The notes beneath the pieces were generated by a model that was not told the DNA's origin, made no database searches, and saw only the letters and a program-made list of their open reading frames with translations. A stretch of DNA of 64,000 nucleotides from a bacterium. Its GTDB lineage: Bacteria; Verrucomicrobiota; Verrucomicrobiia; Chthoniobacterales; UBA6821. How positions within the stretch are numbered: the stretch's first letter is position 1; every line of letters starts with the position of its first letter. Position numbers and translations under genes: made by a program. Of this stretch, positions 11,648 to 57,261 are shown in pieces. Location: positions 81,229-145,228 of the forward strand of contig JAJZSL010000002.1 in NCBI GenBank assembly GCA_021849805.1. Direction: 5' to 3'.

Positions 11648-14347
11648 TTATTGCAGCCACTGTTTTTTTGCTATTTTGGGAATCAATGATGATTCTGAGA
11701 AAGGAGGTTTCTTCTCTTCTTGATTGGGTAGCAGTAGGATAGAGGCTTCAAGGAGGGCAGTAGCACTTCTTTCTCCTTGAGCATTAAGAGTCTCTCCCAA
11801 AATGTAGACGCGGAAAGCTCGTGATTGGAGTGTGCAAAGAGAAATGAATTTTCCAAAGCCTTCTTCGCGTGCTCGATCAAAAACAGCTGCTAGAGGCTTT
11901 CCTCCAATAAGTACATTGGTGGAGAGAGAAGGTGTGTAGGTAGTAGCATTAGCAAGCAGGGGAGTCATGATTGATAGATCGGAGAGTTTTTCATAAGGGC
12001 GTTGTTTTTGAAGGTATGCTGCTAGCTCTTGAGCTGTGGTTAAGGAGATGCTGGAGTTGGTGAAGCGTTGGTCAGAAGTAGGAGTAATTTGATAAAAAAG
12101 GGAAGTGAGTACTTGAGTGGAAGCTGTATTCACATTGATGAGTCCTTGACGCCAAAGAGAAGAAGATGCAGAAGTTTGTTCATCTCGGGCGATGGCTGCT
12201 GATCGATTATTAGTCGTAGCGACTGTAAAAAGGTCGATAAGGTCAATAGCTCTTTTTCCTGGAGTGTCCCAGTAAGGGAATTCTGGTTGTCCTACACGCA
12301 GTGTTCGTCCCCCTCCTGAAGCATAGATGCTAGCCCTATTCTCGCTGGAACCAGCAGCTGGAGCAGCTCCTAGATCGTCAGCTTGGGCAGGATCATTGAT
12401 GTTACCAAGCTCGACAATCGAATTCATTGGCCCATGCCGTAAGAAGAGTGGAGCTGTCTTTGAATCTCGCCATGGTTCATAGGGAGAGATAACTTCATCA
12501 GGAGTCATGGAACGAGAGAGTGGTTTATTACCTGGAGTAGGGTTCAGTGGAACAAAATCTCGCTCTTTCCAGGATTTGTAAGGATCAAAGAGCCGTTCTT
12601 CACTCGCTACCTGCATGGCCCCTTTCCAGCATGTTTCATTGAGATAACTTTTTTCGCTGGAATAGGACTTCCAAAGATAGTTGCTCAAATAGTTTTCTCG
12701 AGGATCTCCTACAAAGCGAAAGTGTCCCGTATGATCTTCTTGAGTGGGAATAAAATTACACTGCCAAAAATTGAAGTGATCTTCCAGTGATTGAGCATCG
12801 TGTTCAAGTCCTCCCAGTGCCGACCCTGGACCAACTGGAGGAGAACGACTCATCATGACCAAGTGATCATTCCAGTAAAAATGAAAGGACTGATGCTCGC
12901 TAGGATGAGCATTTCCTTCTGGTCCGCTAAGCCAATAGGGATGCTCGGAGGGTAAAATAGGTTGTGAAGAGTTCCATACTTGGATCACCGAGGGGAAGCG
13001 AAGAACGATCGACTCGTTGGGACGTAGAGGTAGTAATGTGGAGGCTTCTTCAACATAGTCCTTGAATGCTCCTAAGGTTGTTTGGCCAGCGTGGAGTATT
13101 TGACGATTTTTTATCTCCAGTGTTGCTCTACCACCAGCTGGAATCATTGTTGTGTAAGGATTCCAGAGTTGAAGAAAATATTGATTTTCAATGGTTATAC
13201 TATTGCTTGTTTGTTCTAGGAGGCGACAGCGTTCTGCTGTTTGAGTAACCAGTGGTGTTAAAGCAGCTCCTGCAGGCTCCCCTCCGTTCACCAAAATAGG
13301 TTCTGCTTCTGGAGAAATATAATTGACAATACAGGCAGCAAGACGATTGAGGTAGCGACGTTCTTCTGCAGCTCCCAGATTTCTAAGACTAGGATCCCGT
13401 TCTTTAAAATGAGGGAAAGAGTGATCGATGAGCATGGCAAGATGCAGAGCGCGATCGGAGGGAGTTTGTCCATAGAGTCGGTTGGTCGCTAGATCATTGA
13501 GGTCATATTTGAAACGGCCAGCCTCAGGGAGCCCTTCTGGAATCAAGTCTGGTAGGGAGGTCGAAACTGTTGTTAGAAATTCTTTTTTTTCATCATAAGC
13601 AGCTCGATTTTCAAAAAGAGCTCGCCATCCCTCCAGACTAAGAAAAGAAGTAGAGAGATGTTCTACTTTTTCTTCTTCGAGCTTGTTAAGTAGTAGGGAA
13701 GAGGAAAGTGAAGCAGAGCCATGATCCCAATTAATGGGGTCATCTCTTGGTTCTCCTCGATGGAAGAGGGGATGAAGGCGTGCCTCTTCATCAAGCATCA
13801 CATAGGCATAGCGTGCTATCGGATGACCGTGTTGATCTTTCAGGAAAACCCAAGGAGCAAGGTATTTTCCATGTGCAGCAAGGAAGTGATAATTTTCATT
13901 AAGGTCAACATATTGGCTCTTATCTGCTGAAAAAAGAGGTTGAAGGTAAGAGTCAAAACGATTGTTCTCCAAGATAGATTCATCCTTGAGAAGCGTGAGG
14001 TTGCCTGAGACAAGAGGAATGAGTTCTTCTTTTTTTCTTAAGCCATGACTCCCTACCACTAGGATAGGAGCAGACTCTGGGATGGAGAGAACATTGGTTA
14101 TTCCAACTAAAAAGTTGGGATGGTTGCTTGTTGCAAGAGCAAGGTGCTCTCTAGCGGCGTAAAGCCCTGATTCTGCTGCAAGCATCGCTTGATACCTCTG
14201 AAGATCGTATAGGCTCTTTTTTCTCCTGAACTGAACTTCTTGAGCTAGTGTGAAGAGTAGGAGGCTAGAGAATCCTAGAACAATAAGAACCATCAAGAGA
14301 GCAGATCCACAGGAGGTGTATGTAGAAACTGATGTTCTTGATTTCAA
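11648..14347 (-). CDS. Giant GspK-like minor pseudopilin (899 aa)
   Basis: The N-terminus GSALLMVLIVLGFSSLLLFTL is a prepilin-like hydrophobic helix lacking Glu+5, as in GspK. The C-terminal region has the GspK helix-hairpin-helix signatures GLINVNTASTQVLTSLF and LTTAQELAAYLQKQRPYEKLSDL. There is a 4-nt overlap with the upstream pseudopilin gene. Confidence 0.65.
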   Translation of the reverse strand: MKSRTSVSTYTSCGSALLMVLIVLGFSSLLLFTLAQEVQFRRKKSLYDLQRYQAMLAAESGLYAAREHLALATSNHPNFLVGITNVLSIPESAPILVVGSHGLRKKEELIPLVSGNLTLLKDESILENNRFDSYLQPLFSADKSQYVDLNENYHFLAAHGKYLAPWVFLKDQHGHPIARYAYVMLDEEARLHPLFHRGEPRDDPINWDHGSASLSSSLLLNKLEEEKVEHLSTSFLSLEGWRALFENRAAYDEKKEFLTTVSTSLPDLIPEGLPEAGRFKYDLNDLATNRLYGQTPSDRALHLAMLIDHSFPHFKERDPSLRNLGAAEERRYLNRLAACIVNYISPEAEPILVNGGEPAGAALTPLVTQTAERCRLLEQTSNSITIENQYFLQLWNPYTTMIPAGGRATLEIKNRQILHAGQTTLGAFKDYVEEASTLLPLRPNESIVLRFPSVIQVWNSSQPILPSEHPYWLSGPEGNAHPSEHQSFHFYWNDHLVMMSRSPPVGPGSALGGLEHDAQSLEDHFNFWQCNFIPTQEDHTGHFRFVGDPRENYLSNYLWKSYSSEKSYLNETCWKGAMQVASEERLFDPYKSWKERDFVPLNPTPGNKPLSRSMTPDEVISPYEPWRDSKTAPLFLRHGPMNSIVELGNINDPAQADDLGAAPAAGSSENRASIYASGGGRTLRVGQPEFPYWDTPGKRAIDLIDLFTVATTNNRSAAIARDEQTSASSSLWRQGLINVNTASTQVLTSLFYQITPTSDQRFTNSSISLTTAQELAAYLQKQRPYEKLSDLSIMTPLLANATTYTPSLSTNVLIGGKPLAAVFDRAREEGFGKFISLCTLQSRAFRVYILGETLNAQGERSATALLEASILLLPNQEEKKPPFSESSLIPKIAKKQWLQ

Positions 14348-15069
14348 GGTTTCGGGGGAAGAGCAATTGTTGTAGAGAACATGTTGGTTGCTACTATTTT
14401 TTTAGAGAAAGAAGCAGGAGATGGATGCTGGAGTGCTATGTTGATTTCAAGAAGCGAGGGGGATTGCTCATAAGATCCTTCAGAAGAAGAGGAGACCTGA
14501 GTCCATGCTCCATCGATGAGCCAAACGGGATGGATCTTCCACTCCAAAATAGAGGACGCCATGGGAGGAGAAGCAGTGATCTCCTTCAGAGAGATGCTGG
14601 AGAAGAGCATGGTGATATTTTCGTGCTCAAGGGCAGTGCGTGTTTCTTGAGCATTAGCTAAGAAGCGGTAACAAGTAGCAGAAGAAGCATTTTGCTCCTC
14701 TTGTATCAAAAAGTATCCTACAGCACGTAAATCCTCTTCTGAGTTGAGAGAAGAGAGTGTTAAGAAAATAAGATTTTTTCTGCAACGAGGATCAACGGTT
14801 GGTAGATTGATAAAGAAACTACGCTCTAGCATGACGGAGGAGTGTAGATCATGCGTGATTTGCTCAAGCAGAGAGGAGAGCTGAGAGGTCTTTTTCTCTT
14901 CGTCTGCCTGCTGTTGCCACTTTTTCCAAAGACTACTACTGAAACTAAGAAAAAGAGTGATAATGGAAGCAAGGAGCACCATTGAACAAAGTAGCTCTAG
15001 CAGAGAGAAAGCTCTTTGATGTATGGAGATCTTAGAGCGTGGAAGTATTGCTAGGAAAAGTGCGGCCAT
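14344..15069 (-). CDS. Prepilin-type N-terminal domain protein (GspJ-position minor pseudopilin)
   Basis: The N-terminus is HQRAFSLLELLCSMVLLASIITLFL (class III signal peptide with Glu+5). It is translationally coupled to the GspK-like gene. Confidence 0.65.
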   Translation of the reverse strand: MAALFLAILPRSKISIHQRAFSLLELLCSMVLLASIITLFLSFSSSLWKKWQQQADEEKKTSQLSSLLEQITHDLHSSVMLERSFFINLPTVDPRCRKNLIFLTLSSLNSEEDLRAVGYFLIQEEQNASSATCYRFLANAQETRTALEHENITMLFSSISLKEITASPPMASSILEWKIHPVWLIDGAWTQVSSSSEGSYEQSPSLLEINIALQHPSPASFSKKIVATNMFSTTIALPPKP

Positions 15070-15173
15070 ACAACATTGTCTCTTTTCATGATGGATGAAG
15101 ACGAGGGAGCTTCCCTAGAACGTTCGTGAGAAAAGATGAAGATGATCATTGTTTTTTAGTCGATCCTTGTTAC

Positions 15174-15692
15174 CTAAAATTCACTTGGTAGTAGGAGAGA
15201 AAGAGTCACGTGGTCTCTCTCTTTTTCTGGCTTTTTTGCTGGAGAGCTAACATCAATGAAAATCTGACTCAATCCTAATACAGGAGAGGGGCTAGTGGAG
15301 ATTTTAACAATGCTTTTTATTGGGACCTTTCTTAAGGATGCTTCTCTCCCTCCTTGCTGATATTCTCGCTGCTCTAGGAGACCAGCGGGTTCTCCCATCT
15401 TAGTATAAGCAAGATAATATTCATTAGGAATTTTTAGATCCAGAGTGATCGAGTCAACAGCAAGGTTTTTCCACTGAGGACCGATAGCTATTTTGCTCTC
15501 CGGGGAGGAAGCTTGAAGTATTTCTGCAATGCTTTTGGCAAGATATAGTTCACTTTCATGGCGCTCTCTGCTCTCAGCGATTCGTAGAACTGTTTTCCAG
15601 AGATGAAGAATCGTTACCATTGCCAAGGTGACAAGGATGATGGTGATGGAAACCTCCAGTAGAGAAAATGCAGAAGAAGGTGCATGCTTCAT
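15174..15692 (-). CDS. Prepilin-type N-terminal domain protein (GspH/I-like minor pseudopilin)
   Basis: The N-terminus is MKHAPSSAFSLLEVSITIILVTLAMVTIL. It is 172 aa and is the first gene of the three-gene pseudopilin operon. Confidence 0.65.
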   Translation of the reverse strand: MKHAPSSAFSLLEVSITIILVTLAMVTILHLWKTVLRIAESRERHESELYLAKSIAEILQASSPESKIAIGPQWKNLAVDSITLDLKIPNEYYLAYTKMGEPAGLLEQREYQQGGREASLRKVPIKSIVKISTSPSPVLGLSQIFIDVSSPAKKPEKERDHVTLSLLLPSEF

Positions 15693-18572: not shown

Positions 18573-19121
18573 CTACTTCCACCAAACTCCCTCCGAGGGA
18601 AGAGGAAGAGCATACTTCGGATTGAAGATTGGTGGGTCTCCCCAGGTTTTGGTGTAGGGGGGATTATCTTTTATGTTTACTAAATCAGTAGCATCTAGTT
18701 GTCCGAAATTAATTACGTTTTTATCTATCAATTTAATAAAACAATAATTAGAGGAACTAGCTAATGGTGCATACTCTTCCAAAAATTGGTCAATTTCTAT
18801 TGTTTGTCCTACTTGAGCTATACCTATAATAAATCCATCAGAATATTTAGTTTTAATATATTTCTGATCGACTTTATTAGGAAGTCCAAAGGCATTTCCT
18901 AGGTATAAATGTGTAGACTTACGAAAAGTATATATATACAAATCCTGCTGCAGTACAAATTTTTTGCCGATTGCTTCTGAGTAAGGCTCCTGGTGGCTGA
19001 GGTCCACGGTTCTATGGCAAGAGGAGAAGAAGAGACAAGTAGTGTAGAGAGTGAAGAAGAAAAGGAGTCTTCGACTCAGGGAGAACTTTTCTTCAGAAAG
19101 CTGGTCGAATGGAAGGAGCAT
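18573..19121 (-). CDS. Putative lipoprotein, candidate immunity protein for the Rhs C-terminal toxin (track ORF extends to a TTG at 19181)
   Basis: It lies immediately downstream of the Rhs gene and overlaps it (29 nt from the ATG at 19121). The signal sequence has a lipobox-like end: SRRLLFFFTLYTTCLFFSSC. Sampled lines are about 25-30% GC against about 40-42% in the flanks. Confidence 0.45.
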   Translation of the reverse strand: MLLPFDQLSEEKFSLSRRLLFFFTLYTTCLFFSSCHRTVDLSHQEPYSEAIGKKFVLQQDLYIYTFRKSTHLYLGNAFGLPNKVDQKYIKTKYSDGFIIGIAQVGQTIEIDQFLEEYAPLASSSNYCFIKLIDKNVINFGQLDATDLVNIKDNPPYTKTWGDPPIFNPKYALPLPSEGVWWK

Positions 19122-22100
19122 AATAATTTTTAAAATTGTGTGCTTGAAAAGGATGTTTCCAATCAAAAGCAGGGCCTTCAATCAGTTCATAAGCCTTGTT
19201 CCTATTGCTCAGATTGAAGGAGGGAATGGGATCGGAGGGGACTCGATAGTTGATTGAGGAATGCAAGCCGTAGCGATTTTGGTCAATGAAGACCTGCCCT
19301 CCTAAGGCTTGAACATCCATTCTTGATTTGACATCGTCATGAACAAAAGGGAGTGCTCCAAGAAGAAGAGAGCTCCCATTGCTGTAGGAGACAACATGAA
19401 TCTTCCCAGCAGCACTAGCATTGAACGTATCTGCGGCTCGCAGAGAGGTGAGATCGGTGATTCCTAGGTTTTGGCCAGCAGCTCTGATGAGATCAAAGAA
19501 TATTCCATGAGTTGGGTTAGGGATCGGAGTTACTTGATCTACGTGAAGATGATTAGAAACATTTTGGGACATTTCTTTTGACATAGCATCATTCATATTC
19601 ACTCCATTAATACTATAATTAACTGCCTCGGAAGAGGAGGTGATGGAAGTATCGCCGAGGTTTTGATCTAAGAGACTGAGGCCAAGGCCACGGAGGATAC
19701 TCATTCCTAGGGAGGGGTCGGATTGTTCGCGTGCTTTTTCAATCATGTAGCCAGCATTTTGATATTCTGTCTCATCGAGATACCCTCTGCTATGAGCACT
19801 CTCCACACACCTTCCATCAGGGTCGATCCCATTGACCGGATCACCATGACAATAATCATAGAGATTCAAACTTGCGGCATGTCCCAGAGGATCTGGAGAG
19901 AGGAATCTCCCACTCTTCGGTTCGTAATACCGAGTTCCCAAGTAGTAGAAGCCACTCCAATCCAGGTAGCGATCTCTCCATTGAGCAACCAGATCAGTAT
20001 TGAGAGAAGAGCCAGGCATGGCTCCATAGCCTCCAAGAACATTGCCCCAAGGATAGAGACCAGCATCGGTCGTGATTGCTAAGGAGTCTCCAAAGTAGTT
20101 ATTGATAACTCCATGGAGGTTCTGGCCATTTTCTTCATAGGTGGCCTCTAAGCCGCCGATGCCTTCTGCTCCACCGTAGAAGCCAGAGCGATCTGGTCCA
20201 TAGAGATTCCAAATGGTCTCTAGTCTGCTTGAGGGAGATATTGCAGAGGGCCAGCTGGAGAAGCTTTCATGAACGTAGGAGTGCCCTAGCTCGAGAAATT
20301 CAATTTCTGGATCATAGTAGTAGCGTAGCTTTAAGGGAGTGGAGGTTTCACTATTGCCACTAGCATCTGCATACCTAGTTTCAATACGTCTTCCCAGTCC
20401 ATCATAGCTTGTGGACCAATTGTAGCCTTGATCTTTAGCATTCCGCTGAGAGATTCTTACTAATCTTCCAAAGCTATCCCAGCTGAGTGATTGCGTTGTA
20501 AAATTTTCACTATGGCGCACTGTCACTTCTCCAAGACCATCGTAGTCCATGCTCCATGGATAATTGTACCAGTCGCTTGAGTAGTCGATATCCAAGGTAG
20601 GTTGATGAAAACTGTTTTCAGATTTTACGATATATCCACTAGAGCCTGTCAATGTTTTTCCACTAGGGCTTATGGAAGAGGAGTCTCGAATTCCTAAATT
20701 GTCAAATGAGTAGCCAGCGGTGTGTGTTCCAGCGGCAAGGAGGCTCGGATTGGCTGATTCCAGCAAGGTATATGGCTCTTCAATAAGATTTCCTCGACCA
20801 TCATATTTGTAGTTGCGTGTTTCATTGTCGATACCTGCGATACTATAACTAGCTATTTTTTTACCTTCTCTCCAAGAGAGACTTTCTACTGATCCATCGG
20901 GAAGCTTTGTGTGGATAATATTTCCATAGTTATCACGAGTTAGCGTTGTGTTACCTGCTGGCGTTTGCTTCCAGAGAAGAAGTCCATGATCTCCGTAGCC
21001 ATAAGAGCAAGTACTTCCTCGCGCTTGAGAACCAGCTTGGAGGTTGTTCATTTGGGCACCAGTCATCATTCCCAGCGCATTGTAGGAAAAATGATAAGCT
21101 GGTCCAGAAGCTCTTCCTGCTTCTCCTGGAGCTGCTAGTTTCCAGTTCAGTCCTATCCGCCTTCCAGAGTCATCCCATGTCTGCTCCCAGGAGGAAATGA
21201 TATTTCCATTAAGTGATGTAGCTTCACTACTGAGATCGCCTTGAGCACTATAGGTTCTAGAAACTAGTGTGGAAGGGCCTGTAGAAGGATCACTATAGCT
21301 TTGAGCTACGGAGGTGAGTAATCCTCGTGGATCATAAGTATAGCATGTATTTTGATTTTGCTCTGGGACTTTGGAGCCATTGGAGGTGATGGTGAGGGGG
21401 TGACCCCAGGCATCGTAGGTGAAGGAGGTGCTAAAACCGCGAGGATCCTTGATGTTACTCAGTAAGCCATCTTGGTACTCATAGGTATGATGGCGAGTTA
21501 TCGAGCCATCACTTCCAAGGAGAGCATCAGCAATTTTCTGACCTGCTTGGTCATATTCATTTTCCTCAATGAGTCCCTCGGGCATGATTCGTTTGAGGAT
21601 TTCACCAGCAGCATTGCGTTCGTAGTGTACTTGAGCATTATCACTGGAATCCGTGAAGGGGAGCATTTCAGTTTCAAGTTGATTCAAAGAATTGTAGCTA
21701 AAAGAGCGCTGGATTCCATTATCATCTCGATACCAGAGAAGTTGACCACCTGGTAGGTAGGAAAAGAGTGTGCAACTTGTCGGATGCGTTATGATGAGTG
21801 GTCTTCCTTGGAGATCGCTTGTGGTTGTTGTCGTGATGGCATTGATTCCACTTCCCATCGTTTTGCTCACACTTTGATGGTCCCCGGAGTAGACCTTGCT
21901 CTCCTCATAAGCCACACTCCCATCAGCGTTAAAGAGAGTTGTTAGAACCGAACGTCCGATCCCATCAATAAAATCATTTTGCCATTCTCCTTGTTCATTC
22001 ACCCAGCTTGTGCAGCCCGGTTTGTAGAAGTAGTTCTTTCCTCGAAGGGGACCATGTTCACTTTTGAGACGCCCTAATCCATCGTACGTATCATTCCAAG

Positions 22101-25100
22101 TATTACCAGCAAGGTCTCTTTTACTCGTTAGATTTCCACGTCCATCATAACTCTGGGATATACTTCCTAAGCTCTTTCCAGCTCCATCCAAAAGTGCTCG
22201 AACCATGGTGTTGCCATCGTACGTAATCTGAGCATGTGTTCCATTGGAGAAGATTTCTTCAACTAAGCGACCCGAGAGATCGTAGCGATAGGTGCTTGTC
22301 CTTCCATTAGCTTGTGTAACTGATAAAAGTTGGCCTTTGGAGTTATAAATATTACTTTCGATTCCTCCTAGTACCGTTTTGTGAGTAGCAATCTTTCCGC
22401 CTGGCTCATAGGTGAAGGATTCGCTTGCTGCACCGCTACCCAAAGAACGCGTTAGCATATTGCCAAGCGCATCGTAGCTCATGGTGGTAATATTTCCATT
22501 AGGATCAGTAATAGAGAGGCAGTTGCCAAGTGCATCATAGCTGTATTGGGTGGCTGCTATACCAACACTAGTGACACCTTTTTCACTAAGGCCACTGAGC
22601 CAAACTCCTTGGTGAAGGAGGTGGCCAGCTCGATCGTAGTCGTAGTAGGTATAATCAACGGGGTTAAAACGAGTCCCTTGTTCCCACTCAAGTTCTCCGT
22701 TCCAGTTGTAATACCAGCTATGCCATTGAAGAGGATTGCCAACTTTATCAAAAGTTTCCTCAAAGGTAGGATGCCCGAAGGCATCATAGGAATATTTCTT
22801 CAAGATTCCCTCTGCATCCAATTGAAAAACGATCTCTCCACGAGCATTCGTGTTCATTGTTGTTGTGATATTGGGATCATCAGTTCCACTATTCTGAGTC
22901 ATGGAAGTGAGAAAACCATATTGATTGTAGCTATAGCTGGTCGTGAAGCCATCAACATTAACAGAAGCTGGAAGACCAAAATTACCGTAATTGAACTGAG
23001 TGGAGCTTATCGTTTTTCCCTCGGCTCTTCTGGTAATTGCTGTTGGTTGGAGTGGGTGGCTGGAATCAGTATAAGCGTAGGAGGTAGTATTCCCCATGGG
23101 ATCGCTCAGAGAGGTCAGCATATTGTTTGCATTATAGATGAAGCTGCTCTTAGCGTTTTCACTAGAAGAATAACCAGTGATATTTCCATTGAAGGTCTGG
23201 CTGATGAGGTTTCCTTGAGTGTCATATTCAAAGCTACTGATCAATCCTCGAGAATCAATACGGCTGGTAAGGCAGCGCAGAAGGGGATTCCAATTCTGCA
23301 CAATGGTTCTATTACCTGGATCATGAATTTTGCTGATTTGACTATTAAGAATGGAATAAGTTGTAGTGCTACCGAGCGCATTTTTCACACTCGTCGTGCC
23401 ATTGATGGTGTTATCAGCATTGCTGCTACTCACGCTATAAGTAAAGCTAGCACTCAAGGTCGGTTTAGGATTCGTGCCAACAGTAGACGCTTGGCTTATC
23501 ACCCGCCTTTGCTCGTCATAGCTATTTTCTATAATGCGACCGTTCGGTGTTTTCTCCTGTGTTAAGAGATGGGTGGAGTAGAATTTTCCATCAGCATTTT
23601 TTGCATGCTGGTAGGAGTAATTGATCACGGAGTTATCAGCAAGAGTGACTTGTGTAAGATCCCCCAAGGAATCGTAAGCATATTTAATGGTTCTTCCATC
23701 CTTAGAAGTGACTTCTGTGATATTTCCCAAGGCTCCATAATGGAAGTAAAGGCTATTGCCATTGTTGGAAGTAATATTGATTAATTCTCCATAATCACTT
23801 CTCTTGGGATCTGCTCCATAAGAGAAATGATAACCATTGCCATTGGTATCACTCCAACTATCTAAGTAGGGACGAGTTCGATTAATTTCTGGTGATTCTA
23901 GTGAAGGAAAAGAGCGAACCTTAAAGGTGCGTAGCGTTCCATGAGAGCTTTGTAATAAATAGGTATTCTCCTCTTTTTTAGTAATGAAGTTATTGAAGAG
24001 ATTGTGACTCTCAAGAGTAGAACCATCATTAGGGTTCATCAGATTCGGATTGTCACTTAAGGTAGGCCTCCACGTTTTCTCATTAGCCTTGTAGCGATAA
24101 GCAATAACCGATCCATCCTCTTCTGCTGCATAAATCAATGCTGGAGGAGTGGTCTCATTTCCATCTACTGAGAGAAGAAGATAGTGAAAGAAATTTAATT
24201 TCCATCCTCCTCCAAGATTATTGCCAGCAATGTTTTTAGATCCATAGAGGCGCCTTACTTCCAGCGGCATTGGGCCATTGAGCTTCAGATCAAGAGCATT
24301 AATGTAGAATTCCCCAGTAACAACATTCACCGGATCCATGACAAAATTAATCAGTTTCTCATAGTACGAAGGAGAACCCATATATCCATGATTGTTCAGC
24401 TCTGTATTGAGAAGAGATAATGAGGCAGAGGGTTGAGTATTCGGATGATTCGGAGTTGGTTCTGCTCCTGGTGAACCATTAGGAGCTGATGATGGTGGGG
24501 TCGAATTGTTGCTTTGAGGTGGTGGTGTTGGCTCGTAATATGGACTGCTAGGATCATGAGTCATATCATACTCATGATCGTTCTGTGTATTATTAGTCGG
24601 ATCAATATCATCACCATCGTTATCATCATCCATACTGGAATTAAGGTCGACAATCGGCGCAGGATCATCACCACTAATATCGTTTAATGGAGGATTGTTG
24701 CTAGAGATGGGATCATCCAAAGGTTCTCCATAGCCACCATGATCGACAAAGCTGCTATCTGAAATGATGGCTCCAGAAGATCCAGAAGATAGGGTCAGCG
24801 CTCCCATGCCAGTATAGTGACCATAACTAATAGCTCCTTGATGGCAGAGAACAACCCCTTCTAGATGATCCTTCAGCGTGCTCTCTATACTGTCCCAGAG
24901 GCCATACTCTTTTGTTGCACTCAGGAAGGGAACGGGATTCCCATTGATACTATAATTATCTTTTGTAAAGAGACCAACATTCGCTGCGGGGTGAGCTGCG
25001 ATACCGGTTGTTTCACTCCATCCTTGTGCTATATCCAAAAGTCGTAGGGTGGAAATAGCTCCCTTTTGATTAAAAAACTCATTGATAATACGATGTTCTT

Positions 25101-28100
25101 GAGAGGAGCTCTCGAGGGTAAAAAGACGTTCCTCTCCATTAGATTCAAAATAAAAGCTCGTACCAGAGTCATTGTGAGCTGTGTTATTCCAAAGATCGAC
25201 ATCTTCATGAAAGAACATATCGACTCGTGGATAAACGAGGTTAAAGTCCATTTCTCCCTTGCTATTTTTGACTGTTATAGGATTGCGATGACTGTCACGT
25301 GCTGGACTTAGCTTGCTCAGTCCTTCTGCTCGTGTAGTAATCGTGTGAGTTTTAGTAAGACGCTCTAACTGCTGACGAAATTGACTGCAGTAGTAATAGT
25401 AGGCTCTTCCCATGAGGTGGAGCATTTGTCCTGTGGCTATTTCAGGATCAATGGGAAGAGTTGGGTTCTTTTTTATCTTTTTTTGATAGGCCGTATATTT
25501 TGCTAGTTCAAATTCTTTCATCCTCTCGCTAACACGACCATAATTTAAACTCAAGGCAGCCATATCACCTTTTTCTAGGGGGCGCTCGATGCTATTTGTT
25601 AAGCACTCTCCTCCTATTGGGAATTGTTCAAAGTAGTTGAGCTCCTTGCTTTTTGCTTGCTGATGATGGGTGGAGGAGATGATGTAGCTTAAACTTCCAT
25701 CATGAGTGCCTAGGTTGGCAGTAATTTTTTGAGGACTTTGAAAATCTCCTTGATCGGGATTGCTACCTTTGAAGAAGGTGTGCGATTTTTCCTCTTCTTG
25801 GTTATTATTATAAGCTTCGAGTGATAGGGTAATGGTATAATTTCCATCAGGATTAATGTGATGGTAGAGTAAGAGGCGTCGATCATGAATATCGACATAA
25901 CGCATGATTCCAGTTTCTAGGAGTACTGGATTATTCGGATCACTTGCTCCTTTACCATTGCGATTGCTAACGATCTTGATCTCCAGTGTGTCAAAAAGAT
26001 CCTTAAGATACGCTTCTAGCTTTTCGTTATGCTTGAGTGATGCCACATCGAGAACTTCTGTAATATTGTCTCCTGTGATGAGTGGCGTTTGCCATGGTCG
26101 AGGAAAGTCACTCCAATCGGTATAGTAGTGAGGCTGATTGATAAATGAAATCCCCACATCGTCGAGGGAGAGATTATTTTTTGCTAATTCCTGCTCAGCG
26201 AATAAAGGAAAAAGAGTCCCCGGATTATCATTGCTTAAGATTTCAGCATCGTTTGTGTTCAGTGGATTTCGAATTTTCTGATTGTTGAGCACATAGCCAA
26301 ATAGCCATTTTGTGGGAGTATTGAATTCACTTGGAAAGTAGTTCCAAAGATTTTTTCCTTCTTTGACTTGAGTATCTTTCATCCATGGGAAAAGATGAAT
26401 CCAGCTTCCATTCACGTAAGTAGTAACCCAAGGGTAATTAATAGGAATAAGCTCGGGAAGATTAGCAGGAACAAAGGCATTGATGGCTCCTCGGATTTGA
26501 GTGTGAAGTATTTTGCTCAGTTGCTCATCGAAGAGAAGAGTTTTATTATTCTCTGGAAAGACATAGGCTGCAGGATATCCAGCTCTTCTCAAGAGGTAGA
26601 TGAGTAAGGCGCACTGTTCTAGTGGAGATCCTTGCCCTTCGAGATAAGTAGCTAAGGCATCACGAGACATGCCTTGTGGATTGATAGAGAGAGCACTGAT
26701 ACTATCACTCGTATTATAGCCGATGGCATCGGTTAGTTCGATTTCGTTTTGAACATAATTAGCCAAAGCCATAGGATCTCCTCCTTTTTCTTCAACGATA
26801 CTATCAAGTTGGGGATGAATTTTTAATTCAGGGCTCACTCCAAGGCTCAAATACTGATTTTCCTTGGGTGCCAGAAGGGTGTCTGATACTTGAGGGGCTT
26901 GGTGAATGAGTTCATCGACACTTTTTCCTAGGTAAGTACTTGGAAGAGGTATTCCTTGAAAATAAGGAAGATGGAGAAACGTTGTTCTCCAAGAACCAGG
27001 ATCATCAAAATCTAAGGTGTAAGTAAGATTATAAGTATGGGCCTTATGAGGATCCGCTTTTAAGTCTTCTAGAGAAAGTGAAGACTTCATTTGTTGACTG
27101 GCTAGAGAAACATATTCCCAGGATCCCTTTTCGTCAGTGGTTACTTCTTCTGCTCCCAAAATACTTATTTTATAATAATAAGAACTGTTGGCTGCACGGT
27201 GTGTTATGAGAAAAGGATAGGGAAGATCCTCGCCCCAAGTCTCTAGAAGATTGTCTGAGAGGATATATTCAATTTGTGTGTCAAAATCGATTGGAATTTG
27301 ATGACTGTTATCAACGATATGATAATCAATGGTATTACCATGAGCGAGAAGATCACTAAAAGGAGCTTGTGCTGGATGCGCTGGGTCTTTTTTATCTAGG
27401 CTCGAGGGAAGTGAGTATCTTCGTACGCAAATGGGGGCAACCAGCGTTGCTCCATGATCAAAAGATTTTTTGTCATAAATTTCAATCAAGAGATCATAAT
27501 CATCATGAAAATGTAGATTTTTTCCTCCTGCCGCTATTCCAAAATGATAATCTTCATTAATATATAAAGGGCTACCCCCACCTTGACTTCCAAAAGCAAC
27601 AAAGGGAGGTTGCCCACCTGTTACTCTGTTTTCTAGTTTAGGAAGTGTGTTTACTGCTGTATAAGCAAGATGATTAAAGCGTAAGTCAAGATGATAGCAG
27701 GGATTATTAAGTTCTGGTACCGAGGAGACATAACGTAAGAACCAGGGATAAGAAGGATATTGGTCTGCACGAAAACATTCTCGAAAATCATCAATTCCAT
27801 CCAAAGAAATAGCGGTTTCCTCATCCATAGCAATCATACTGCTATAGCAGAGTCCAGCGCCATCAAAACCTCGATAGTAGCGATTGCAGGGTAAAACGTT
27901 GAGTTCTAGAACAGCACTCGTACTCTCTCCCAAGTTATCATAGGCTACTGCGGTGATATGATAATTCCCACTTTGAGGAATAGAACAAGAGAGCTCATAA
28001 GGTTCCTCTCTAAGAGTAGCTATGAAACCGACTTCATTATCATAAAATACTACCTGCTTGATGAGGGTTCCCTGAGGATGCGTTACATGAGCAATCAGGG

Positions 28101-28797
28101 TAACATTAGCAGGGGCTCTGTAAGGACCAGTAGCTGCAATACTAATACTGAAGGGAAGATCGGGAGCAGGTTGATTTTTCCCTGCATCGCTATAGGAGAG
28201 CAGGTTGATTTTGTTATCAGAGTACCCGCTAGCATGAAGTATCTCTTCTACTTTGGTTTGATATTGGAGTGGAGAAGTTGTTTGCTGAGAAAAAGTATCT
28301 TCTTTTTTTGTGGGTTGACTCTTATCGCTAGATTGTTGTTGAGCTTCTGTTCTTTTGTCTAAAGAAATTTCATCATCACTATTCCAAATGCTCCCATCTT
28401 TTTTATAGGCAATGGTCGTAGTATCGCTGCAAGAAATACGAATAACATTTTCTAGAGGTCCTGCGGAGGTTTCTACAGGAAGGAAATACTCTTGAGAAGT
28501 TACTCCAACACCAAGTTGGCCATGTCGATTTTTTCCTTTTCCCCAAAGTGTCCCATCTTTTTTTAAAACAATGGTGAAATCTGCCTGCTCTTTTTGCTGA
28601 GCAACTTCCTTCATGACGATGGAATGATCCGGCAACTTAGAATTTTCTTCCCCCTGTTTTGAACTAAGAGCTCTATGAGAGAATAAGAAGGTGGAAACAA
28701 AAAGAGGATAAAGAACTCTTTTTAAGCAGAAAAATTTCATGAAATAGTTCAAGGAGAGGGGGCGCAACTTGCCTGGTAAGGTAGGCACAACTTTCAT
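19093..28797 (-). CDS. Rhs/YD-repeat polymorphic toxin with RCC1-like, Ig-like and transglutaminase-like N-terminal regions (3234 aa)
   Basis: The N-terminus is hydrophobic and signal-like (MKFFCLKRVLYPLFVSTFLFSHRALS from the alternative ATG at 28740; the ATG at 28797 has a GAGGA Shine-Dalgarno sequence). An RCC1-like motif DGTLWGKGKNRHGQLGVG is present. The transglutaminase-like core is GSPLEQCALLIYLLRRAGYPA ... WIHLFPW. The Rhs plug is DPVNVVTGEFYINALDLKLNGPMPLEVRRLY. Dozens of YD repeats follow (YxYDxxGNL/RL). The terminal motif is YYLGTRYYEPKSGRFLSPDPLGH...GDPVNGIDPDGR. Confidence 0.9.
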   Translation of the reverse strand: MKVVPTLPGKLRPLSLNYFMKFFCLKRVLYPLFVSTFLFSHRALSSKQGEENSKLPDHSIVMKEVAQQKEQADFTIVLKKDGTLWGKGKNRHGQLGVGVTSQEYFLPVETSAGPLENVIRISCSDTTTIAYKKDGSIWNSDDEISLDKRTEAQQQSSDKSQPTKKEDTFSQQTTSPLQYQTKVEEILHASGYSDNKINLLSYSDAGKNQPAPDLPFSISIAATGPYRAPANVTLIAHVTHPQGTLIKQVVFYDNEVGFIATLREEPYELSCSIPQSGNYHITAVAYDNLGESTSAVLELNVLPCNRYYRGFDGAGLCYSSMIAMDEETAISLDGIDDFRECFRADQYPSYPWFLRYVSSVPELNNPCYHLDLRFNHLAYTAVNTLPKLENRVTGGQPPFVAFGSQGGGSPLYINEDYHFGIAAGGKNLHFHDDYDLLIEIYDKKSFDHGATLVAPICVRRYSLPSSLDKKDPAHPAQAPFSDLLAHGNTIDYHIVDNSHQIPIDFDTQIEYILSDNLLETWGEDLPYPFLITHRAANSSYYYKISILGAEEVTTDEKGSWEYVSLASQQMKSSLSLEDLKADPHKAHTYNLTYTLDFDDPGSWRTTFLHLPYFQGIPLPSTYLGKSVDELIHQAPQVSDTLLAPKENQYLSLGVSPELKIHPQLDSIVEEKGGDPMALANYVQNEIELTDAIGYNTSDSISALSINPQGMSRDALATYLEGQGSPLEQCALLIYLLRRAGYPAAYVFPENNKTLLFDEQLSKILHTQIRGAINAFVPANLPELIPINYPWVTTYVNGSWIHLFPWMKDTQVKEGKNLWNYFPSEFNTPTKWLFGYVLNNQKIRNPLNTNDAEILSNDNPGTLFPLFAEQELAKNNLSLDDVGISFINQPHYYTDWSDFPRPWQTPLITGDNITEVLDVASLKHNEKLEAYLKDLFDTLEIKIVSNRNGKGASDPNNPVLLETGIMRYVDIHDRRLLLYHHINPDGNYTITLSLEAYNNNQEEEKSHTFFKGSNPDQGDFQSPQKITANLGTHDGSLSYIISSTHHQQAKSKELNYFEQFPIGGECLTNSIERPLEKGDMAALSLNYGRVSERMKEFELAKYTAYQKKIKKNPTLPIDPEIATGQMLHLMGRAYYYYCSQFRQQLERLTKTHTITTRAEGLSKLSPARDSHRNPITVKNSKGEMDFNLVYPRVDMFFHEDVDLWNNTAHNDSGTSFYFESNGEERLFTLESSSQEHRIINEFFNQKGAISTLRLLDIAQGWSETTGIAAHPAANVGLFTKDNYSINGNPVPFLSATKEYGLWDSIESTLKDHLEGVVLCHQGAISYGHYTGMGALTLSSGSSGAIISDSSFVDHGGYGEPLDDPISSNNPPLNDISGDDPAPIVDLNSSMDDDNDGDDIDPTNNTQNDHEYDMTHDPSSPYYEPTPPPQSNNSTPPSSAPNGSPGAEPTPNHPNTQPSASLSLLNTELNNHGYMGSPSYYEKLINFVMDPVNVVTGEFYINALDLKLNGPMPLEVRRLYGSKNIAGNNLGGGWKLNFFHYLLLSVDGNETTPPALIYAAEEDGSVIAYRYKANEKTWRPTLSDNPNLMNPNDGSTLESHNLFNNFITKKEENTYLLQSSHGTLRTFKVRSFPSLESPEINRTRPYLDSWSDTNGNGYHFSYGADPKRSDYGELINITSNNGNSLYFHYGALGNITEVTSKDGRTIKYAYDSLGDLTQVTLADNSVINYSYQHAKNADGKFYSTHLLTQEKTPNGRIIENSYDEQRRVISQASTVGTNPKPTLSASFTYSVSSSNADNTINGTTSVKNALGSTTTYSILNSQISKIHDPGNRTIVQNWNPLLRCLTSRIDSRGLISSFEYDTQGNLISQTFNGNITGYSSSENAKSSFIYNANNMLTSLSDPMGNTTSYAYTDSSHPLQPTAITRRAEGKTISSTQFNYGNFGLPASVNVDGFTTSYSYNQYGFLTSMTQNSGTDDPNITTTMNTNARGEIVFQLDAEGILKKYSYDAFGHPTFEETFDKVGNPLQWHSWYYNWNGELEWEQGTRFNPVDYTYYDYDRAGHLLHQGVWLSGLSEKGVTSVGIAATQYSYDALGNCLSITDPNGNITTMSYDALGNMLTRSLGSGAASESFTYEPGGKIATHKTVLGGIESNIYNSKGQLLSVTQANGRTSTYRYDLSGRLVEEIFSNGTHAQITYDGNTMVRALLDGAGKSLGSISQSYDGRGNLTSKRDLAGNTWNDTYDGLGRLKSEHGPLRGKNYFYKPGCTSWVNEQGEWQNDFIDGIGRSVLTTLFNADGSVAYEESKVYSGDHQSVSKTMGSGINAITTTTTSDLQGRPLIITHPTSCTLFSYLPGGQLLWYRDDNGIQRSFSYNSLNQLETEMLPFTDSSDNAQVHYERNAAGEILKRIMPEGLIEENEYDQAGQKIADALLGSDGSITRHHTYEYQDGLLSNIKDPRGFSTSFTYDAWGHPLTITSNGSKVPEQNQNTCYTYDPRGLLTSVAQSYSDPSTGPSTLVSRTYSAQGDLSSEATSLNGNIISSWEQTWDDSGRRIGLNWKLAAPGEAGRASGPAYHFSYNALGMMTGAQMNNLQAGSQARGSTCSYGYGDHGLLLWKQTPAGNTTLTRDNYGNIIHTKLPDGSVESLSWREGKKIASYSIAGIDNETRNYKYDGRGNLIEEPYTLLESANPSLLAAGTHTAGYSFDNLGIRDSSSISPSGKTLTGSSGYIVKSENSFHQPTLDIDYSSDWYNYPWSMDYDGLGEVTVRHSENFTTQSLSWDSFGRLVRISQRNAKDQGYNWSTSYDGLGRRIETRYADASGNSETSTPLKLRYYYDPEIEFLELGHSYVHESFSSWPSAISPSSRLETIWNLYGPDRSGFYGGAEGIGGLEATYEENGQNLHGVINNYFGDSLAITTDAGLYPWGNVLGGYGAMPGSSLNTDLVAQWRDRYLDWSGFYYLGTRYYEPKSGRFLSPDPLGHAASLNLYDYCHGDPVNGIDPDGRCVESAHSRGYLDETEYQNAGYMIEKAREQSDPSLGMSILRGLGLSLLDQNLGDTSITSSSEAVNYSINGVNMNDAMSKEMSQNVSNHLHVDQVTPIPNPTHGIFFDLIRAAGQNLGITDLTSLRAADTFNASAAGKIHVVSYSNGSSLLLGALPFVHDDVKSRMDVQALGGQVFIDQNRYGLHSSINYRVPSDPIPSFNLSNRNKAYELIEGPAFDWKHPFQAHNFKNYYAPSIRPAF
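19096..19809 (-). other. Variable C-terminal toxin domain (238 aa), possibly an alpha/beta-hydrolase-like esterase or lipase
   Basis: This is the sequence after the Rhs end motif and has no YD repeats. It contains a beta-strand plus nucleophile-elbow-like stretch, GKIHVVSYSNGSSLLLGAL, and later Asp/His candidates (FVHDD, WKHPFQAHN). The functional call is inference only. Confidence 0.35.
19810..24336 (-). other. Rhs/YD-repeat shell region of the toxin (about residues 1488-2996)
   Basis: It is bounded by the DPVNVVTGEF plug motif (Asp codon at 24334-24336) and the GDPVNGIDPDGR end motif (last codon ends at 19810). Confidence 0.8.
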
Positions 28798-34190: not shown

Positions 34191-34191
34191 A

Positions 34192-38951: not shown

Positions 38952-39533
38952 ATGGCTAATTCTCAAGAAACCATAGAAGAGGATATAACACGTCCTTTAG
39001 ATCAAGCAGGTCAAGAAGGTGTGATTAAAGAAGGTGATACTTCTCAAACTGGAGAAGTGCCTCAAGCAGCACCCACAGAAAACATGACCGAAGAAGAAGA
39101 GTTCACTGCCCACCGAAAGGATGAACATCGTCTTGCAGAACAATCAGAAGAGGAGCCAGTTTCACTGGAGCAATTTGCTAAGGAGCTTACTTCAACATCT
39201 TCTCTTCCAAATGCAGTTTCCTCATTACCCGTAGCGTCACCTTCAGCAAAGGAAGAATCAGTGCTTCCTCCTGCTTTGGGAATCAGTACAAAAGCTAGTG
39301 CGCAACCTCTCGTGGATCCTCTTGATCTAGAAGTGGAATTGTCTTTTTCCTTAGGAAAAAAGTTGGTTCCACTCAAGGAGGTGAAGACGCTTCTGGAAGG
39401 CAAGTTTCTTTCTCTTGGTGGAACAGATTTTCAAGTAAGTATTTTGCTTGAGAAGAAAGTAATTGCTTTTGCCCAGCTGGTCTTAGTGGAGGGAGTTCCA
39501 TCGTTGCAGATTATCAAAAGTGTTACTCCTTGA
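38952..39533 (+). CDS. SpoA-domain protein (SctQ/FliN family) with an acidic disordered N-terminal half
   Basis: The C-terminal roughly 75 aa, LEVELSFSLGKKLVPLKEVKTLLEGKFLSLGG...VIAFAQLVLVEGVPSLQIIKSV, match the surface-presentation-of-antigens (FliN/SctQ C-terminal) pattern. Confidence 0.6.
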   Translation: MANSQETIEEDITRPLDQAGQEGVIKEGDTSQTGEVPQAAPTENMTEEEEFTAHRKDEHRLAEQSEEEPVSLEQFAKELTSTSSLPNAVSSLPVASPSAKEESVLPPALGISTKASAQPLVDPLDLEVELSFSLGKKLVPLKEVKTLLEGKFLSLGGTDFQVSILLEKKVIAFAQLVLVEGVPSLQIIKSVTP

Positions 39534-39572
39534 TATGTTCCTGTTTGATTAAAAGAAGAATGCCTTTAGGAA

Positions 39573-40769: not shown

Positions 40770-40815
40770 AGAAGCGACTTTTTAATAACTAAGAGAATAA
40801 TCCATTGAAAATCTC

Positions 40816-41184: not shown

Positions 41185-41192
41185 ATTTTTTA

Positions 41193-41579: not shown

Positions 41580-41602
41580 ATGTTGATTTCAAATCATCAA
41601 AA

Positions 41603-41977: not shown

Positions 41978-42132
41978 GAGACTAAACTGCTAGCACCATC
42001 AACTATTCCTTCGAAAAACCAGATTATTTTTTGATGATTTCTTTTTTAAGAAAGGCTGTTCATACTCCAAAATTTCAAAAAGCCAACGTGGAGTGATTCT
42101 ACTCCTTTCTAAGCAAACCAAAGAGCTCTTTA

Positions 42133-57254: not shown

Positions 57255-57261
57255 AAATTTG

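Follow-up and report, generated by a model that had tools for sequence, protein, structure and literature searches.

The 64-kb window (the whole stretch of DNA that was analysed) belongs to a Chthoniobacterales bacterium (Verrucomicrobiota), which is a soil or freshwater Verrucomicrobium; RpoC clusters at 90% identity or more with a protein from a Chthoniobacterales MAG. It carries a gene for a large Rhs/YD-repeat protein, followed on the same strand by a gene for a small lipoprotein (Table 1). The preliminary description had read the 3234-aa product as containing a complete Rhs cage, and this is borne out by matches to RHS_repeat (Pfam, E 7.9e-66), DUF6531, TIGR01643 (YD repeats, E 2.9e-58) and TIGR03696. 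The plug includes the motif DPVNVVTGEF...PLEVRRLY, and the Rhs-associated core carries the autoprotease-type end motif ...SPDPLGH...GDPVNGIDPDG, the last residue of which is G2995. A full-length homologue (P0004) is 46% identical to the Rhs protein over 3116 aa.

Table 1. Features of the Rhs/lipoprotein locus and export genes of the same window.
Feature	Position	Strand	Basis or remark
Rhs/YD-repeat polymorphic toxin gene, 3234 aa + stop	19093..28797	-	ORF list, translation
N-terminal Sec-type signal peptide, aa 1-46 (alternative start M20)	28660..28797	-	by eye from sequence
Short RCC1-like repeat remnant, aa 71-138	28384..28587	-	Pfam RCC1 E 6e-06, also RCC1_2
Conserved ~1,150-aa N-terminal module, aa 215-1370	24688..28155	-	local BLAST against large Rhs proteins; alignments A3, A4
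Bacterial Ig-like (Big/Fn3-like) domain, aa ~220-300	27898..28140	-	PDB profile search, Foldseek
Transglutaminase-like core in module, aa 682-810, invariant Cys729	26368..26754	-	Pfam, Foldseek, alignment
Pro/Ser/Asn/Asp-rich low-complexity linker, aa ~1365-1460	24418..24705	-	read from translation
DUF6531 plug domain, aa 1488-1544	24166..24336	-	Pfam PF20148, E 4.6e-13
YD-repeat shell, aa 1545-2915	20053..24165	-	RHS_repeat, TIGR01643, partial NF041261
Rhs-associated core, aa 2916-2995	19813..20052	-	TIGR03696, E 1.1e-17
C-terminal toxin domain (predicted), 239 aa, R2996/C2997 to F3234	19096..19812	-	tail family, AF2, Foldseek
Putative catalytic residue Ser3139	19381..19383	-	
Putative catalytic residue Asp3189	19231..19233	-	
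Putative catalytic residue His3220	19138..19140	-	
Cognate lipoprotein gene (predicted immunity protein), 182 aa + stop	18573..19121	-	linkage to tail
Lipoprotein signal peptide, lipobox F-S-S-C35	19017..19121	-	read from sequence
Pseudopilin-like genes	11648..15692		3.4-7 kb from toxin locus
Type III secretion (Ysc-type T3SS) cluster	38952..45860		in window

The Rhs protein begins with a putative signal peptide which, judged by eye, has a basic n-region, a hydrophobic stretch VLYPLFVSTFLF and then ALS/S. Counted from M20, with M1 as the alternative start, the N-terminus reads MKFFCLKRVLYPLFVSTFLFSHRALS/S and is likewise signal-peptide-like by eye. Clear signal peptides are found in the relatives throughout the family, and Pfam detects no PAAR or prePAAR domain in the 3234-aa protein, in agreement with the earlier view of this N-terminus as signal-peptide-like rather than PAAR. 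The RCC1-like remnant that follows (PDB matches to UVR8/RCC1 at 2.5e-07) is common to two relatives, L007 and L009. The Ig-like domain matches CbhA Fn3-like modules and the bacterial Ig domain B1 in the PDB profile search (1.5e-12 to 5.6e-09) and 9kvu/3pdg in Foldseek (TMt ~0.7), and PF17957 is found in relatives.

Many verrucomicrobial Rhs proteins share the N-terminal module at 27-56% identity. Module and cage are conserved in at least 80 genome loci, almost all of which carry a Verrucomicrobiota label, and every one of these loci has a tail of its own. The AF2 model of the module has a pLDDT of 65, falling below 50 at the linker end. The transglutaminase-like core is below threshold for Pfam Transglut_core (E 0.013) and is matched by Foldseek to TG2/FXIII (2.6e-05) and to the bacterial transglutaminase-like protease 3isr (prob 0.99). 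C729 is invariant, and the canonical His and Asp positions, aligned to the motif by eye, are occupied by Y788 and F803.

The architecture of signal peptide, transglutaminase-like domain and RHS repeats is already known in silico from Zhang et al. 2012 (PMC3482391), who assigned proteins whose RHS repeats follow an N-terminal 'inactive transglutaminase' to the Sec/T2SS class of polymorphic toxins. The present protein shares with that class the signal peptide, the occasional bacterial Ig domain, the transglutaminase-like domain, the RHS repeats and the variable C-terminal toxin, and differs in that the module spans ~1,150 aa and its catalytic Cys is invariant. The delivery context had been called unusual in the preliminary description, a judgement that goes too far given the recurrence of the architecture in at least 80 loci and its classification since 2012, albeit in a purely computational description that gives no delivery mechanism.

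A separate non-repeat tail follows the Rhs end motif, as proposed earlier. Homology to ~35 sister proteins ends at aa 2995-3006, and the unrelated tails of these proteins begin exactly at the end motif. Proteins that have all or part of the N-terminal region in common with this one carry other tails, namely TNT, SsdA-type deaminase and DUF687-like hydrolase domains. The tail studied here is one of at least 50 related C-terminal domains and has no Pfam match at threshold and no PDB sequence match even at E <= 10. It confidently models as a minimal cutinase-like alpha/beta hydrolase (AF2 pLDDT 92.9, pTM 0.88) with a predicted Ser3139-Asp3189-His3220 triad. Across 35 aligned relatives, a G, an N, a D, the S and the second D are invariant and the H is nearly so. 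The tail is thus a domain of its own and not an extension of the shell devoid of a catalytic constellation. In the model, Ser3139 comes after strand E143-148 and before helix H151-161, which is the nucleophile-elbow position, so that the IHVVSYSNGSS segment, previously noted as a possible esterase or lipase elbow, would supply the nucleophile of the conserved triad. An elbow of this kind is usually G/A-x-S-x-G; it reads S-Y-S-N-G here, A/G/M-[FY]-S-N-[GA] in close relatives and AHSQG in most relatives.

The nearest solved folds in Foldseek are cutinases, PETases/PET hydrolases and CALB (lipase B), with 4pse as the best match (E 8.8e-4, prob 0.99). Sub-threshold matches point the same way, to the cutinase/lipase elbow in the PDB profile search and to DUF676, Lipase_3, DUF900, Cutinase and Tle3 in Pfam. 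Given that solved hydrolases resemble the model weakly (TM 0.34-0.47) and that no curated alpha/beta-hydrolase model is matched at threshold, the substrate class is still wide, and may be a lipid, a peptidoglycan O-acetyl group or another ester. Toxin tails with an alpha/beta-hydrolase fold were also reported in PMC3482391 (Tox-ABhydrolase-1/2/3). The immunity partners listed for Tox-ABhydrolase-2/3 are SUKH, Imm66 and Imm69 proteins, whereas the predicted partner here is a lipoprotein. The domain would represent a previously unnamed lipase/esterase-like Rhs warhead.

The downstream open reading frame spans 18573..19181, and its ATG at 19121 lies inside the last nine codons of the toxin gene, giving a 29-nt overlap that is seen likewise in the homologous locus L002. 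The product has no Pfam or NCBIfam match. Its signal ends in ...CLFFSS-C35, and the homologues all carry canonical lipoboxes at the aligned position (LASC, LIGC, LAGC, CSGC, LTSC, TQGC). The overlap with the toxin stop and the lipobox-like LFFSSC signal described before are both upheld.

It is clear that the lipoprotein follows the tail. Homologues of it lie directly 3' of the same tail in nine other loci (L001, L002, L003, L004, L011, L015, L047, L084 and L086), ten with the present one. The family is absent from every locus without this tail among the first 83 loci, including ~50 related Rhs loci whose tails are different, so that the proposed co-conservation of the downstream frame with homologous C-terminal domains does hold. 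In L085 and L087, where the tail is a more distant member of its family, unrelated genes follow. Locus L011 has three copies of the lipoprotein and two orphan tail fragments, each with a lipoprotein paralogue after it. In L084 and L086, the pair is joined to Rhs proteins whose N-termini are different, indicating that tail and lipoprotein move as a cassette. The linkage in nine other loci, its absence from the ~50 sister loci and the orphans of L011 support a candidate toxin/immunity pair that would act in the cell envelope in the manner of Tle/Tli systems.

The reading that we favor, with a probability of roughly 0.7, is that of a chromosomal Rhs polymorphic toxin/immunity pair in which the tail is a predicted envelope-acting esterase/lipase, the lipoprotein its predicted immunity protein, and export is Sec-first and does not use a T6SS. 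The pair would be a real but fairly ordinary case of bacterial toxin-antidote weaponry. In Rhs/Tc/teneurin-type toxins, the tail after the end motif is encapsulated and autoproteolytically released. By the same logic, the cage would enclose the tail and an aspartyl autoprotease at the DPxG motif would cut it free. Once delivered into neighboring diderm bacteria, the tail may work in their periplasm or membrane as an esterase or lipase, with a lipid or ester of the envelope as its substrate, while the periplasm-facing lipoprotein, by analogy with Tle/Tli systems, would bind and block the enzyme and so shield the producer cell and its kin. Tli3, an outer-membrane lipoprotein (PMC9860674), is a precedent for a lipoprotein that confers immunity to a lipase effector acting on the envelope. 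In T6SS Tle/Tli pairs (e.g., Tle3/Tli3, PMC9860674), as is predicted here, a Ser-Asp-His alpha/beta-hydrolase acts in the target periplasm or membranes and a neighboring gene encodes a periplasm-facing immunity protein that is often a lipoprotein. The tail differs from them in matching no Tle Pfam model at threshold, in being much smaller (~180 aa core, five strands), and in being the end of an Rhs cage that would enclose it, with no T6SS context found in the window. For export, Sec as the first step is most likely; the second, outer step, which may be type II secretion or surface display via the N-terminal module, is the least certain.

Delivery by a T6SS whose genes, along with those for VgrG and the adaptor, are encoded outside the window, the toxin being mounted on the spike through its N-terminal module, is unlikely. 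Most of the Rhs toxins characterized in diderm bacteria are delivered by a T6SS, and the window covers 64 kb of a ~318-kb contig, so that a distant T6SS could lie outside it. The T6SS Rhs effectors of Proteobacteria (Photorhabdus Rhs1, PMC8636562; Serratia Rhs, PMC4524185) also share the DUF6531 plug, the YD cage, the DPxG-ended core, the variable C-terminal toxin and the immunity gene directly 3'. They carry, however, PAAR/prePAAR domains together with vgrG and chaperone genes, whereas the present protein, which has neither domain, carries a signal peptide and a large Ig and transglutaminase-like module. The Sec signals of the family look cleavable, while cytoplasmically loaded T6SS cargo has no such signals. 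No T6SS genes were found in the 64-kb window, and its scanned ORFs (all those of at least 100 aa that are not nested in another scanned gene, apart from the rpoB fragment at 49..2433) contain no PAAR, VgrG, Hcp, TcA/TcB or T7SS family, in line with the preliminary description. The sampled flanks contain no PAAR, VgrG or Hcp, and no VgrG-, Hcp- or Eag-like family recurs around the 80 related loci. The Sec/T2SS-dependent class assigned to this architecture (PMC3482391) also speaks for Sec-first export. WapA of Bacillus subtilis and Streptococcus suis (PMC12704120) is likewise an Rhs-type toxin that is exported by means of a signal peptide, without a T6SS, and has its immunity gene downstream; it is anchored to the cell wall of a monoderm, whereas the present producer is a diderm, for which a step across the outer membrane is needed. 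Among the nearby export genes, the pseudopilin-like genes had been pointed out correctly; the T3SS cluster in the same window had gone unmentioned.

This Ysc-type cluster hints at dealings with eukaryotes. Rhs cages of Tc systems deliver anti-eukaryotic toxins, and host membranes are open to attack by cutinase- or lipase-like enzymes. It is nonetheless quite unlikely that the target is eukaryotic and that the lipoprotein guards only the envelope of the producer during the periplasmic passage of the toxin. The protein shares with the TcB-TcC cocoons and the teneurin YD shells a YD-repeat shell that encloses and autoproteolytically cleaves a C-terminal toxin, but it differs in that its N-terminus is neither a TcB-type beta-propeller nor of the SpvB type, that the scanned window has no TcA-like translocator, and that a cognate predicted immunity gene is present. 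In addition, tail and lipoprotein form strict cassettes, and both tandem paralogues of the immunity gene and orphan pieces of the tail occur, all of which typify systems for kin discrimination between bacteria. The TNT and DNA-deaminase tails of N-terminally related proteins belong to families known from antibacterial polymorphic toxins.

That the lipoprotein is an accessory factor of the toxin (outer-membrane tether, export helper or activator) and not its immunity protein is very unlikely: co-occurrence alone does not separate the two roles, and the immunity protein of an Enterobacter Tle/Tli pair is documented to activate its lipase as well (PMC10294624), but the lipoprotein goes with the tail and not with the export module, since it follows this tail in proteins of three different N-terminal architectures, and is kept beside truncated orphan tails incapable of export, which is the behavior expected of immunity genes.

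The preliminary description of this locus had reported a giant Rhs/YD open reading frame and a shorter one overlapping its 3' end, and both were found in place. The Rhs cage that had been read in the former, with its plug, YD repeats and end motif, is borne out by matches to PF20148, PF05593, TIGR01643 and TIGR03696 (see the table), and a PxxxxDPxG-type motif closes the Rhs-associated core at G2995. The N-terminus is a signal peptide, as judged by eye from the sequence and its homologues, and signal peptides are also found at the start of the members of the Rhs family. The number of sites returned by a promoter and terminator scan was not above that in shuffled sequence. Following the signal peptide there are RCC1-type blades, only one to two (28384..28587, minus strand, aa 71-138), where a propeller needs more; several relatives (loci L057, L064 and L067) have longer RCC1-like regions or separate upstream RCC1-repeat genes.

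Coordinates of the features of the Rhs locus, of its surroundings and of one related locus
Feature	Position	Strand	Basis or remark
Rhs/YD ORF, 3234 aa	19093..28797	-	
Transglutaminase-like core (candidate)	aa 682-810, 26368..26754	-	
DUF6531 plug	aa 1488-1544		PF20148, E 4.6e-13
RHS/YD repeat shell			RHS_repeat PF05593, E 7.9e-66; TIGR01643, E 2.9e-58
Rhs-associated core	aa 2916-2995		TIGR03696, E 1.1e-17; end ...SPDPLGH...GDPVNGIDPDG
Lipoprotein ORF, 182 aa	ATG 19121, stop at 18573	-	overlaps last 29 nt of the Rhs gene
Three pseudopilin-like genes	11648..15692	-	
T3SS cluster, Ysc-type	38952..45860	+	
L011 region (uncultured Chthoniobacter, CAYOAN010000006.1)	18028-20417		tail fragments 18613-18972 and 19621-19908

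A pattern scan of species-representative genomes revealed at least 80 loci with a related scaffold (27-56% identical), almost all of them from Chthoniobacterales, Limisphaerales and other Verrucomicrobiota. In about 35 of these relatives the homology stops at aa 2995-3006 and gives way to an unrelated tail of 180-465 aa, while in those with the hydrolase tail described below it continues to the end of the protein. A TNT NAD-glycohydrolase, a deaminase of the SsdA type and a hydrolase resembling DUF687 are among the tails of further proteins that have some or all of the N-terminal region in common with the window protein. As a polymorphic toxin the scaffold is thus widespread in Verrucomicrobiota, and there is a whole clade of giant Sec-signal Rhs toxins in this abundant but poorly studied phylum of soil and freshwater. 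In 41 more distant loci, mostly from Limisphaerales and other Verrucomicrobiota, a signal-anchored protein of approximately 140 aa without a Pfam match lies directly upstream on the same strand (e.g., L072:7673-8146); the window lacks it. In some of these loci there are, to judge from the look of the sequences, TraG/VirD4-like and ParA-like genes as well, which suggests mobile elements.

The 239 residues past G2995, hereafter the tail, have no match in Pfam, NCBIfam or PDB sequences, even at E <= 10. A word-indexed protein search gave one match with the tail and three with a 35-sequence profile. By an exhaustive profile HMM search the tail was found in 50 of the best 151 matches after removal of those matching the core only, so that the family has at least 50 members; the query alignment of this search (A1) included 43 aa of the Rhs core, and about two thirds of the top 150 matches were core-only and were removed by phmmer with the tail alone. 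The tail is nearly always at the C-terminal end of the protein, and many of its carriers are giant Rhs proteins. In an alignment of 35 tail domains, G3065, N3094, D3102, S3139 and D3189 do not vary and the conservation of H3220 is at least 90%, with the Ser, acid, His order kept (S3139, D3189, H3220). The nucleophile elbow proposed in the preliminary description, IHVVSYSNGSS, is where the invariant Ser3139 sits, with a strand before it and a helix after it; the elbow reads SYSNG in the window and AHSQG in most relatives.

The AlphaFold2 model of the tail, built from the 35-domain alignment, has a pLDDT of 92.9 and a pTM of 0.88. It contains a parallel sheet of five strands, in which S3139 lies between strand E143-148 and helix H151-161, the Asp past the last strand, and the His in the loop preceding the final helix. 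The nearest solved folds retrieved by Foldseek are cutinases, PET hydrolases (PETases) and Candida lipase B (CALB), and the best match is 4pse (E 8.8e-4, probability 0.99); the TM values do not exceed the range 0.34-0.47, and some flavodoxin-like folds are interspersed among the matches. Profile comparison with the PDB and Pfam scans of each member gave only sub-threshold matches, all of them to esterases or lipases (cutinase, thermostable lipases, DUF676, Lipase_3, DUF900 and Tle3). Taken together, the model and the sequence conservation give good support to an alpha/beta hydrolase with a Ser-Asp-His triad, as regards both fold class and triad. A predicted fold and a putative catalytic triad are hereby assigned to a toxin family of at least 50 members that had not been modelled before. 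The preliminary description had named a structural extension of the shell with no catalytic constellation as the outcome that would speak against a toxin; such an extension is rejected, because the tail models as a fold of its own and keeps its triad.

The tail does not reach the threshold of any curated alpha/beta-hydrolase family model in Pfam, and its relatives touch such models (DUF676, Lipase_3, DUF900 and Cutinase) only below threshold. It lies outside the Tle1 (DUF2235), Tle2 (Lipase_3), Tle3 and Tle4 families, given that only two to three of the 35 relatives touch Lipase_3 or Tle3 (E 0.004-0.03). The window tail has no match to DUF687 (PF05095), a family of alpha/beta-hydrolase-like proteins of Chlamydia, either. 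The tail of a related protein, P0072, matches DUF687 above threshold (E 4e-08) and aligns to the window tail family with an hhalign probability of 97.5%, which points to a distant kinship of the tail family with DUF687 and not to membership. All descriptions of DUF687 so far are, to our knowledge, of Inc-like proteins from Chlamydia, and the family is said to lack catalytic residues. In P0072 (2752 aa) the DUF687-matching tail makes up the last 250 aa and keeps a VHSQG motif, and the protein shares the parts ~620-900 and ~1125-1370 (window protein numbering) of the N-terminal module.

The lipoprotein encoded by the overlapping frame has no family match in Pfam, NCBIfam or PDB sequences. The preliminary claim that this frame is co-conserved with the tail was confirmed, since a homologue directly follows the tail in all ten loci of this branch, the window included, and a search of all frames of the first 83 related loci with an HMM of the lipoprotein family gave no copy beyond the tail loci; about 50 of these 83 are sister Rhs loci with other tails. 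The homologues of L001 and L002 are both 45% identical to the window lipoprotein, and that of L002 has the same 29-nt overlap, while that of L003 is 24% identical (E 3e-8) and follows a tail that is only 29% identical. Homologues after the tail are also present in L004, L011, L015 and L047, from genomes labelled Verrucomicrobiota. The lipobox cysteine is at the same aligned position in every member of the family. In L085 and L087, where the tails are remoter members of the family, the downstream genes are unrelated and, therefore, the pairing is confined to this branch of the tail and does not extend to every distant relative.

In L084 and L086 the tail and the lipoprotein stand behind Rhs proteins with quite different N-termini, which indicates that the pair moves as a unit between scaffolds. 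Of the N-termini seen in these two loci (L084:4001-15531 and L086:4001-13019), one is of the Laminin_G type and the other, from GCA_021772635.1, of the Transglut_core plus Big_9 type. In L011 three lipoprotein paralogues come after the full-length Rhs gene, with two truncated tail fragments between them, and such orphan units of tail and immunity gene are familiar from loci of the Rhs and CDI kinds. By its sequence relationships the lipoprotein behaves as the cognate partner of the tail, with a predicted role in immunity, and it would represent a new immunity family that travels as a cassette with the tail domain. A lipoprotein that is an accessory of the tail, and does not protect the cell, fits less well with this cassette behavior, the orphan fragments and the signal peptides.

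The region between the signal peptide and the plug contains a module (aa ~215-1370) that is common to other giant Rhs proteins at 28-46% identity. An Ig-like domain is found in it (1.5e-12), and three weak lines of evidence point to a transglutaminase-like core: a sub-threshold match to Transglut_core in Pfam (E 0.013), a PF01841 match in P0107 (a member of the tail family with an N-terminus weakly similar to the module), and Foldseek matches to TG2 (2.6e-05) and to the bacterial transglutaminase-like protease 3isr (probability 0.99), which are only indicative because the model, obtained from a 16-sequence alignment, has a pLDDT of just 65. All 23 relatives compared keep Cys729. When the motifs are aligned, Tyr788 and Phe803, likewise without variation, stand where the canonical His and Asp would be, and the nearby His801 and Asp808 are conserved in 20 of the 23 sequences. 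This core may, from its sequence, be inactive or may have a shifted triad with His801 and Asp808. The remaining ~600 aa of the module have no detectable relatives.

The architecture of the scaffold is known in outline, given its in silico description in 2012 (PMC3482391). In that work Zhang et al. reported toxins of the Sec/T2SS class with an inactive transglutaminase that comes after the signal peptide and ahead of the RHS repeats, in some cases with neighboring bacterial Ig domains. These toxins share with the window protein the signal peptide, the transglutaminase-like domain in that position and the Ig-like domain. The same study reported three alpha/beta-hydrolase toxin families, and the immunity partners of Tox-ABhydrolase-2/-3, namely SUKH, Imm66 and Imm69 (PMC3482391), are not lipoproteins, in contrast with the partner found in the window. 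By sequence the tail may itself belong to one of these hydrolase families. Apparently new here are a hydrolase toxin domain and a predicted lipoprotein immunity family, both without a name so far; the scaffold that carries them had already been described in silico, and the current understanding of Rhs systems is not challenged. The closest functional parallel is that of the Tle/Tli pairs of T6SS, in which a Ser-Asp-His lipase acts in the periplasm of the target and is blocked by a periplasmic partner, often a lipoprotein. Tli3, for instance, is an outer-membrane lipoprotein (PMC9860674). The window tail differs from these pairs in that it belongs to no Tle sequence family and has no T6SS context. 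WapA is a Sec-dependent Rhs toxin studied in monoderm bacteria, whereas the window scaffold lies in a diderm.

The analysis shows how the domains are arranged, where the polymorphic boundary lies, that the tail models as a hydrolase with its triad and that tail and lipoprotein are strictly linked. The biology of Rhs, Tc and Tle/Tli systems suggests how the locus would work. The tail would be encapsulated in the cage and released by autoproteolysis, and it would then act as an esterase or lipase on an envelope substrate of neighboring diderm cells, with the lipoprotein protecting the producer and its kin. The interpretation given in the preliminary description, of a released toxin, perhaps an esterase or lipase, with an immunity lipoprotein, is supported at the computational level. 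The least certain step is the exit from the producer and the entry into the target. Exit would start with Sec, through the signal peptide, and could continue by type II secretion or by surface display through the N-terminal module. It is also conceivable, if rather unlikely, that this module is a self-contained, T6SS-independent delivery device that, after Sec export, displays the cage on the cell surface or releases it, and mediates receptor binding and the entry into neighboring diderm cells; if true, this would be a new Rhs delivery route, widespread in Verrucomicrobiota. The question raised is how a cage of more than 300 kDa passes the outer membrane of a diderm and reaches the periplasm of a competitor without a T6SS. 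This Rhs locus, in which an easy esterase assay would go together with the fitting antidote, would make a convenient and tractable model for T6SS-independent Rhs delivery in Verrucomicrobiota.

The window had been described as devoid of T6SS, Tc and T7SS genes, and the family scans agree. No PAAR, VgrG, Hcp, Tc or T7SS component was found in the window ORFs of at least 100 aa outside the larger scanned genes (excepting the rpoB fragment at 49..2433), and the scanned ORFs encode housekeeping and sugar-metabolism proteins. The Rhs protein itself has no PAAR or prePAAR family in whole-protein and N-terminal scans with Pfam and NCBIfam, and no TcB-type N-terminus (SpvB, TcdB mid domains or beta-propeller), and the window has no TcA gene. 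Genes for vgrG, hcp, an Eag chaperone or the T6SS core are absent from the 64 kb, and none recurs in the flanks of the related loci. Delivery of the Rhs protein by a T6SS encoded elsewhere in the genome is a less likely alternative, with which the cassette behavior, the orphan tail fragments and the signal peptides agree less well.

The earlier survey of export genes was right about the pseudopilins and left the T3SS cluster unmentioned. One of the pseudopilin-like genes encodes 899 aa, of which the first ~70 residues match GspK and the rest has no family match. Related loci do not share this proximity of pseudopilin genes to the Rhs gene and, when these loci were searched for a conserved export neighbor, the lipoprotein alone was common with the window. 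A secretin, encoded in L011 at 2.2 kb upstream of Rhs, and SecA near L015 were each seen only once. The T3SS genes follow a Yersinia-like order, with a SctQ-like protein, a gatekeeper SctW made of fused YopN and TyeA, a SycN-like chaperone, an unassigned 128-aa ORF, a SctY-like TPR chaperone, SctV and SctD. The presence of a T3SS in a Chthoniobacterales genome hints at interaction with eukaryotic cells and, by the same token, at a eukaryotic target for the Rhs toxin; the same three features, cassette, orphan fragments and signal peptides, are less readily accommodated by such a target than by neighboring bacteria.

As regards the origin of the window, RpoC (2488..6591) shares a cluster of at least 90% identity with a MAG protein that carries the NCBI label Chthoniobacterales, an order in Verrucomicrobiota. 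A chlamydial affinity, considered from the fused YopN-TyeA, the futalosine genes and GlgE, is countered by RpoC, by the Ysc-like order of the T3SS and by the Rhs relatives labelled Verrucomicrobiota. Elsewhere in the window, a single ORF at 56100..57431 (minus strand) fuses a 6-phosphogluconolactonase-type domain with RpiB, and EF-Ts (7488..8120, plus strand) is unusually short, with 210 aa. The holA-like (33036..34379) and uvrB (34192..36288) ORFs, both on the minus strand, overlap by 188 nt, and the listed start of the holA-like ORF is probably too far upstream.
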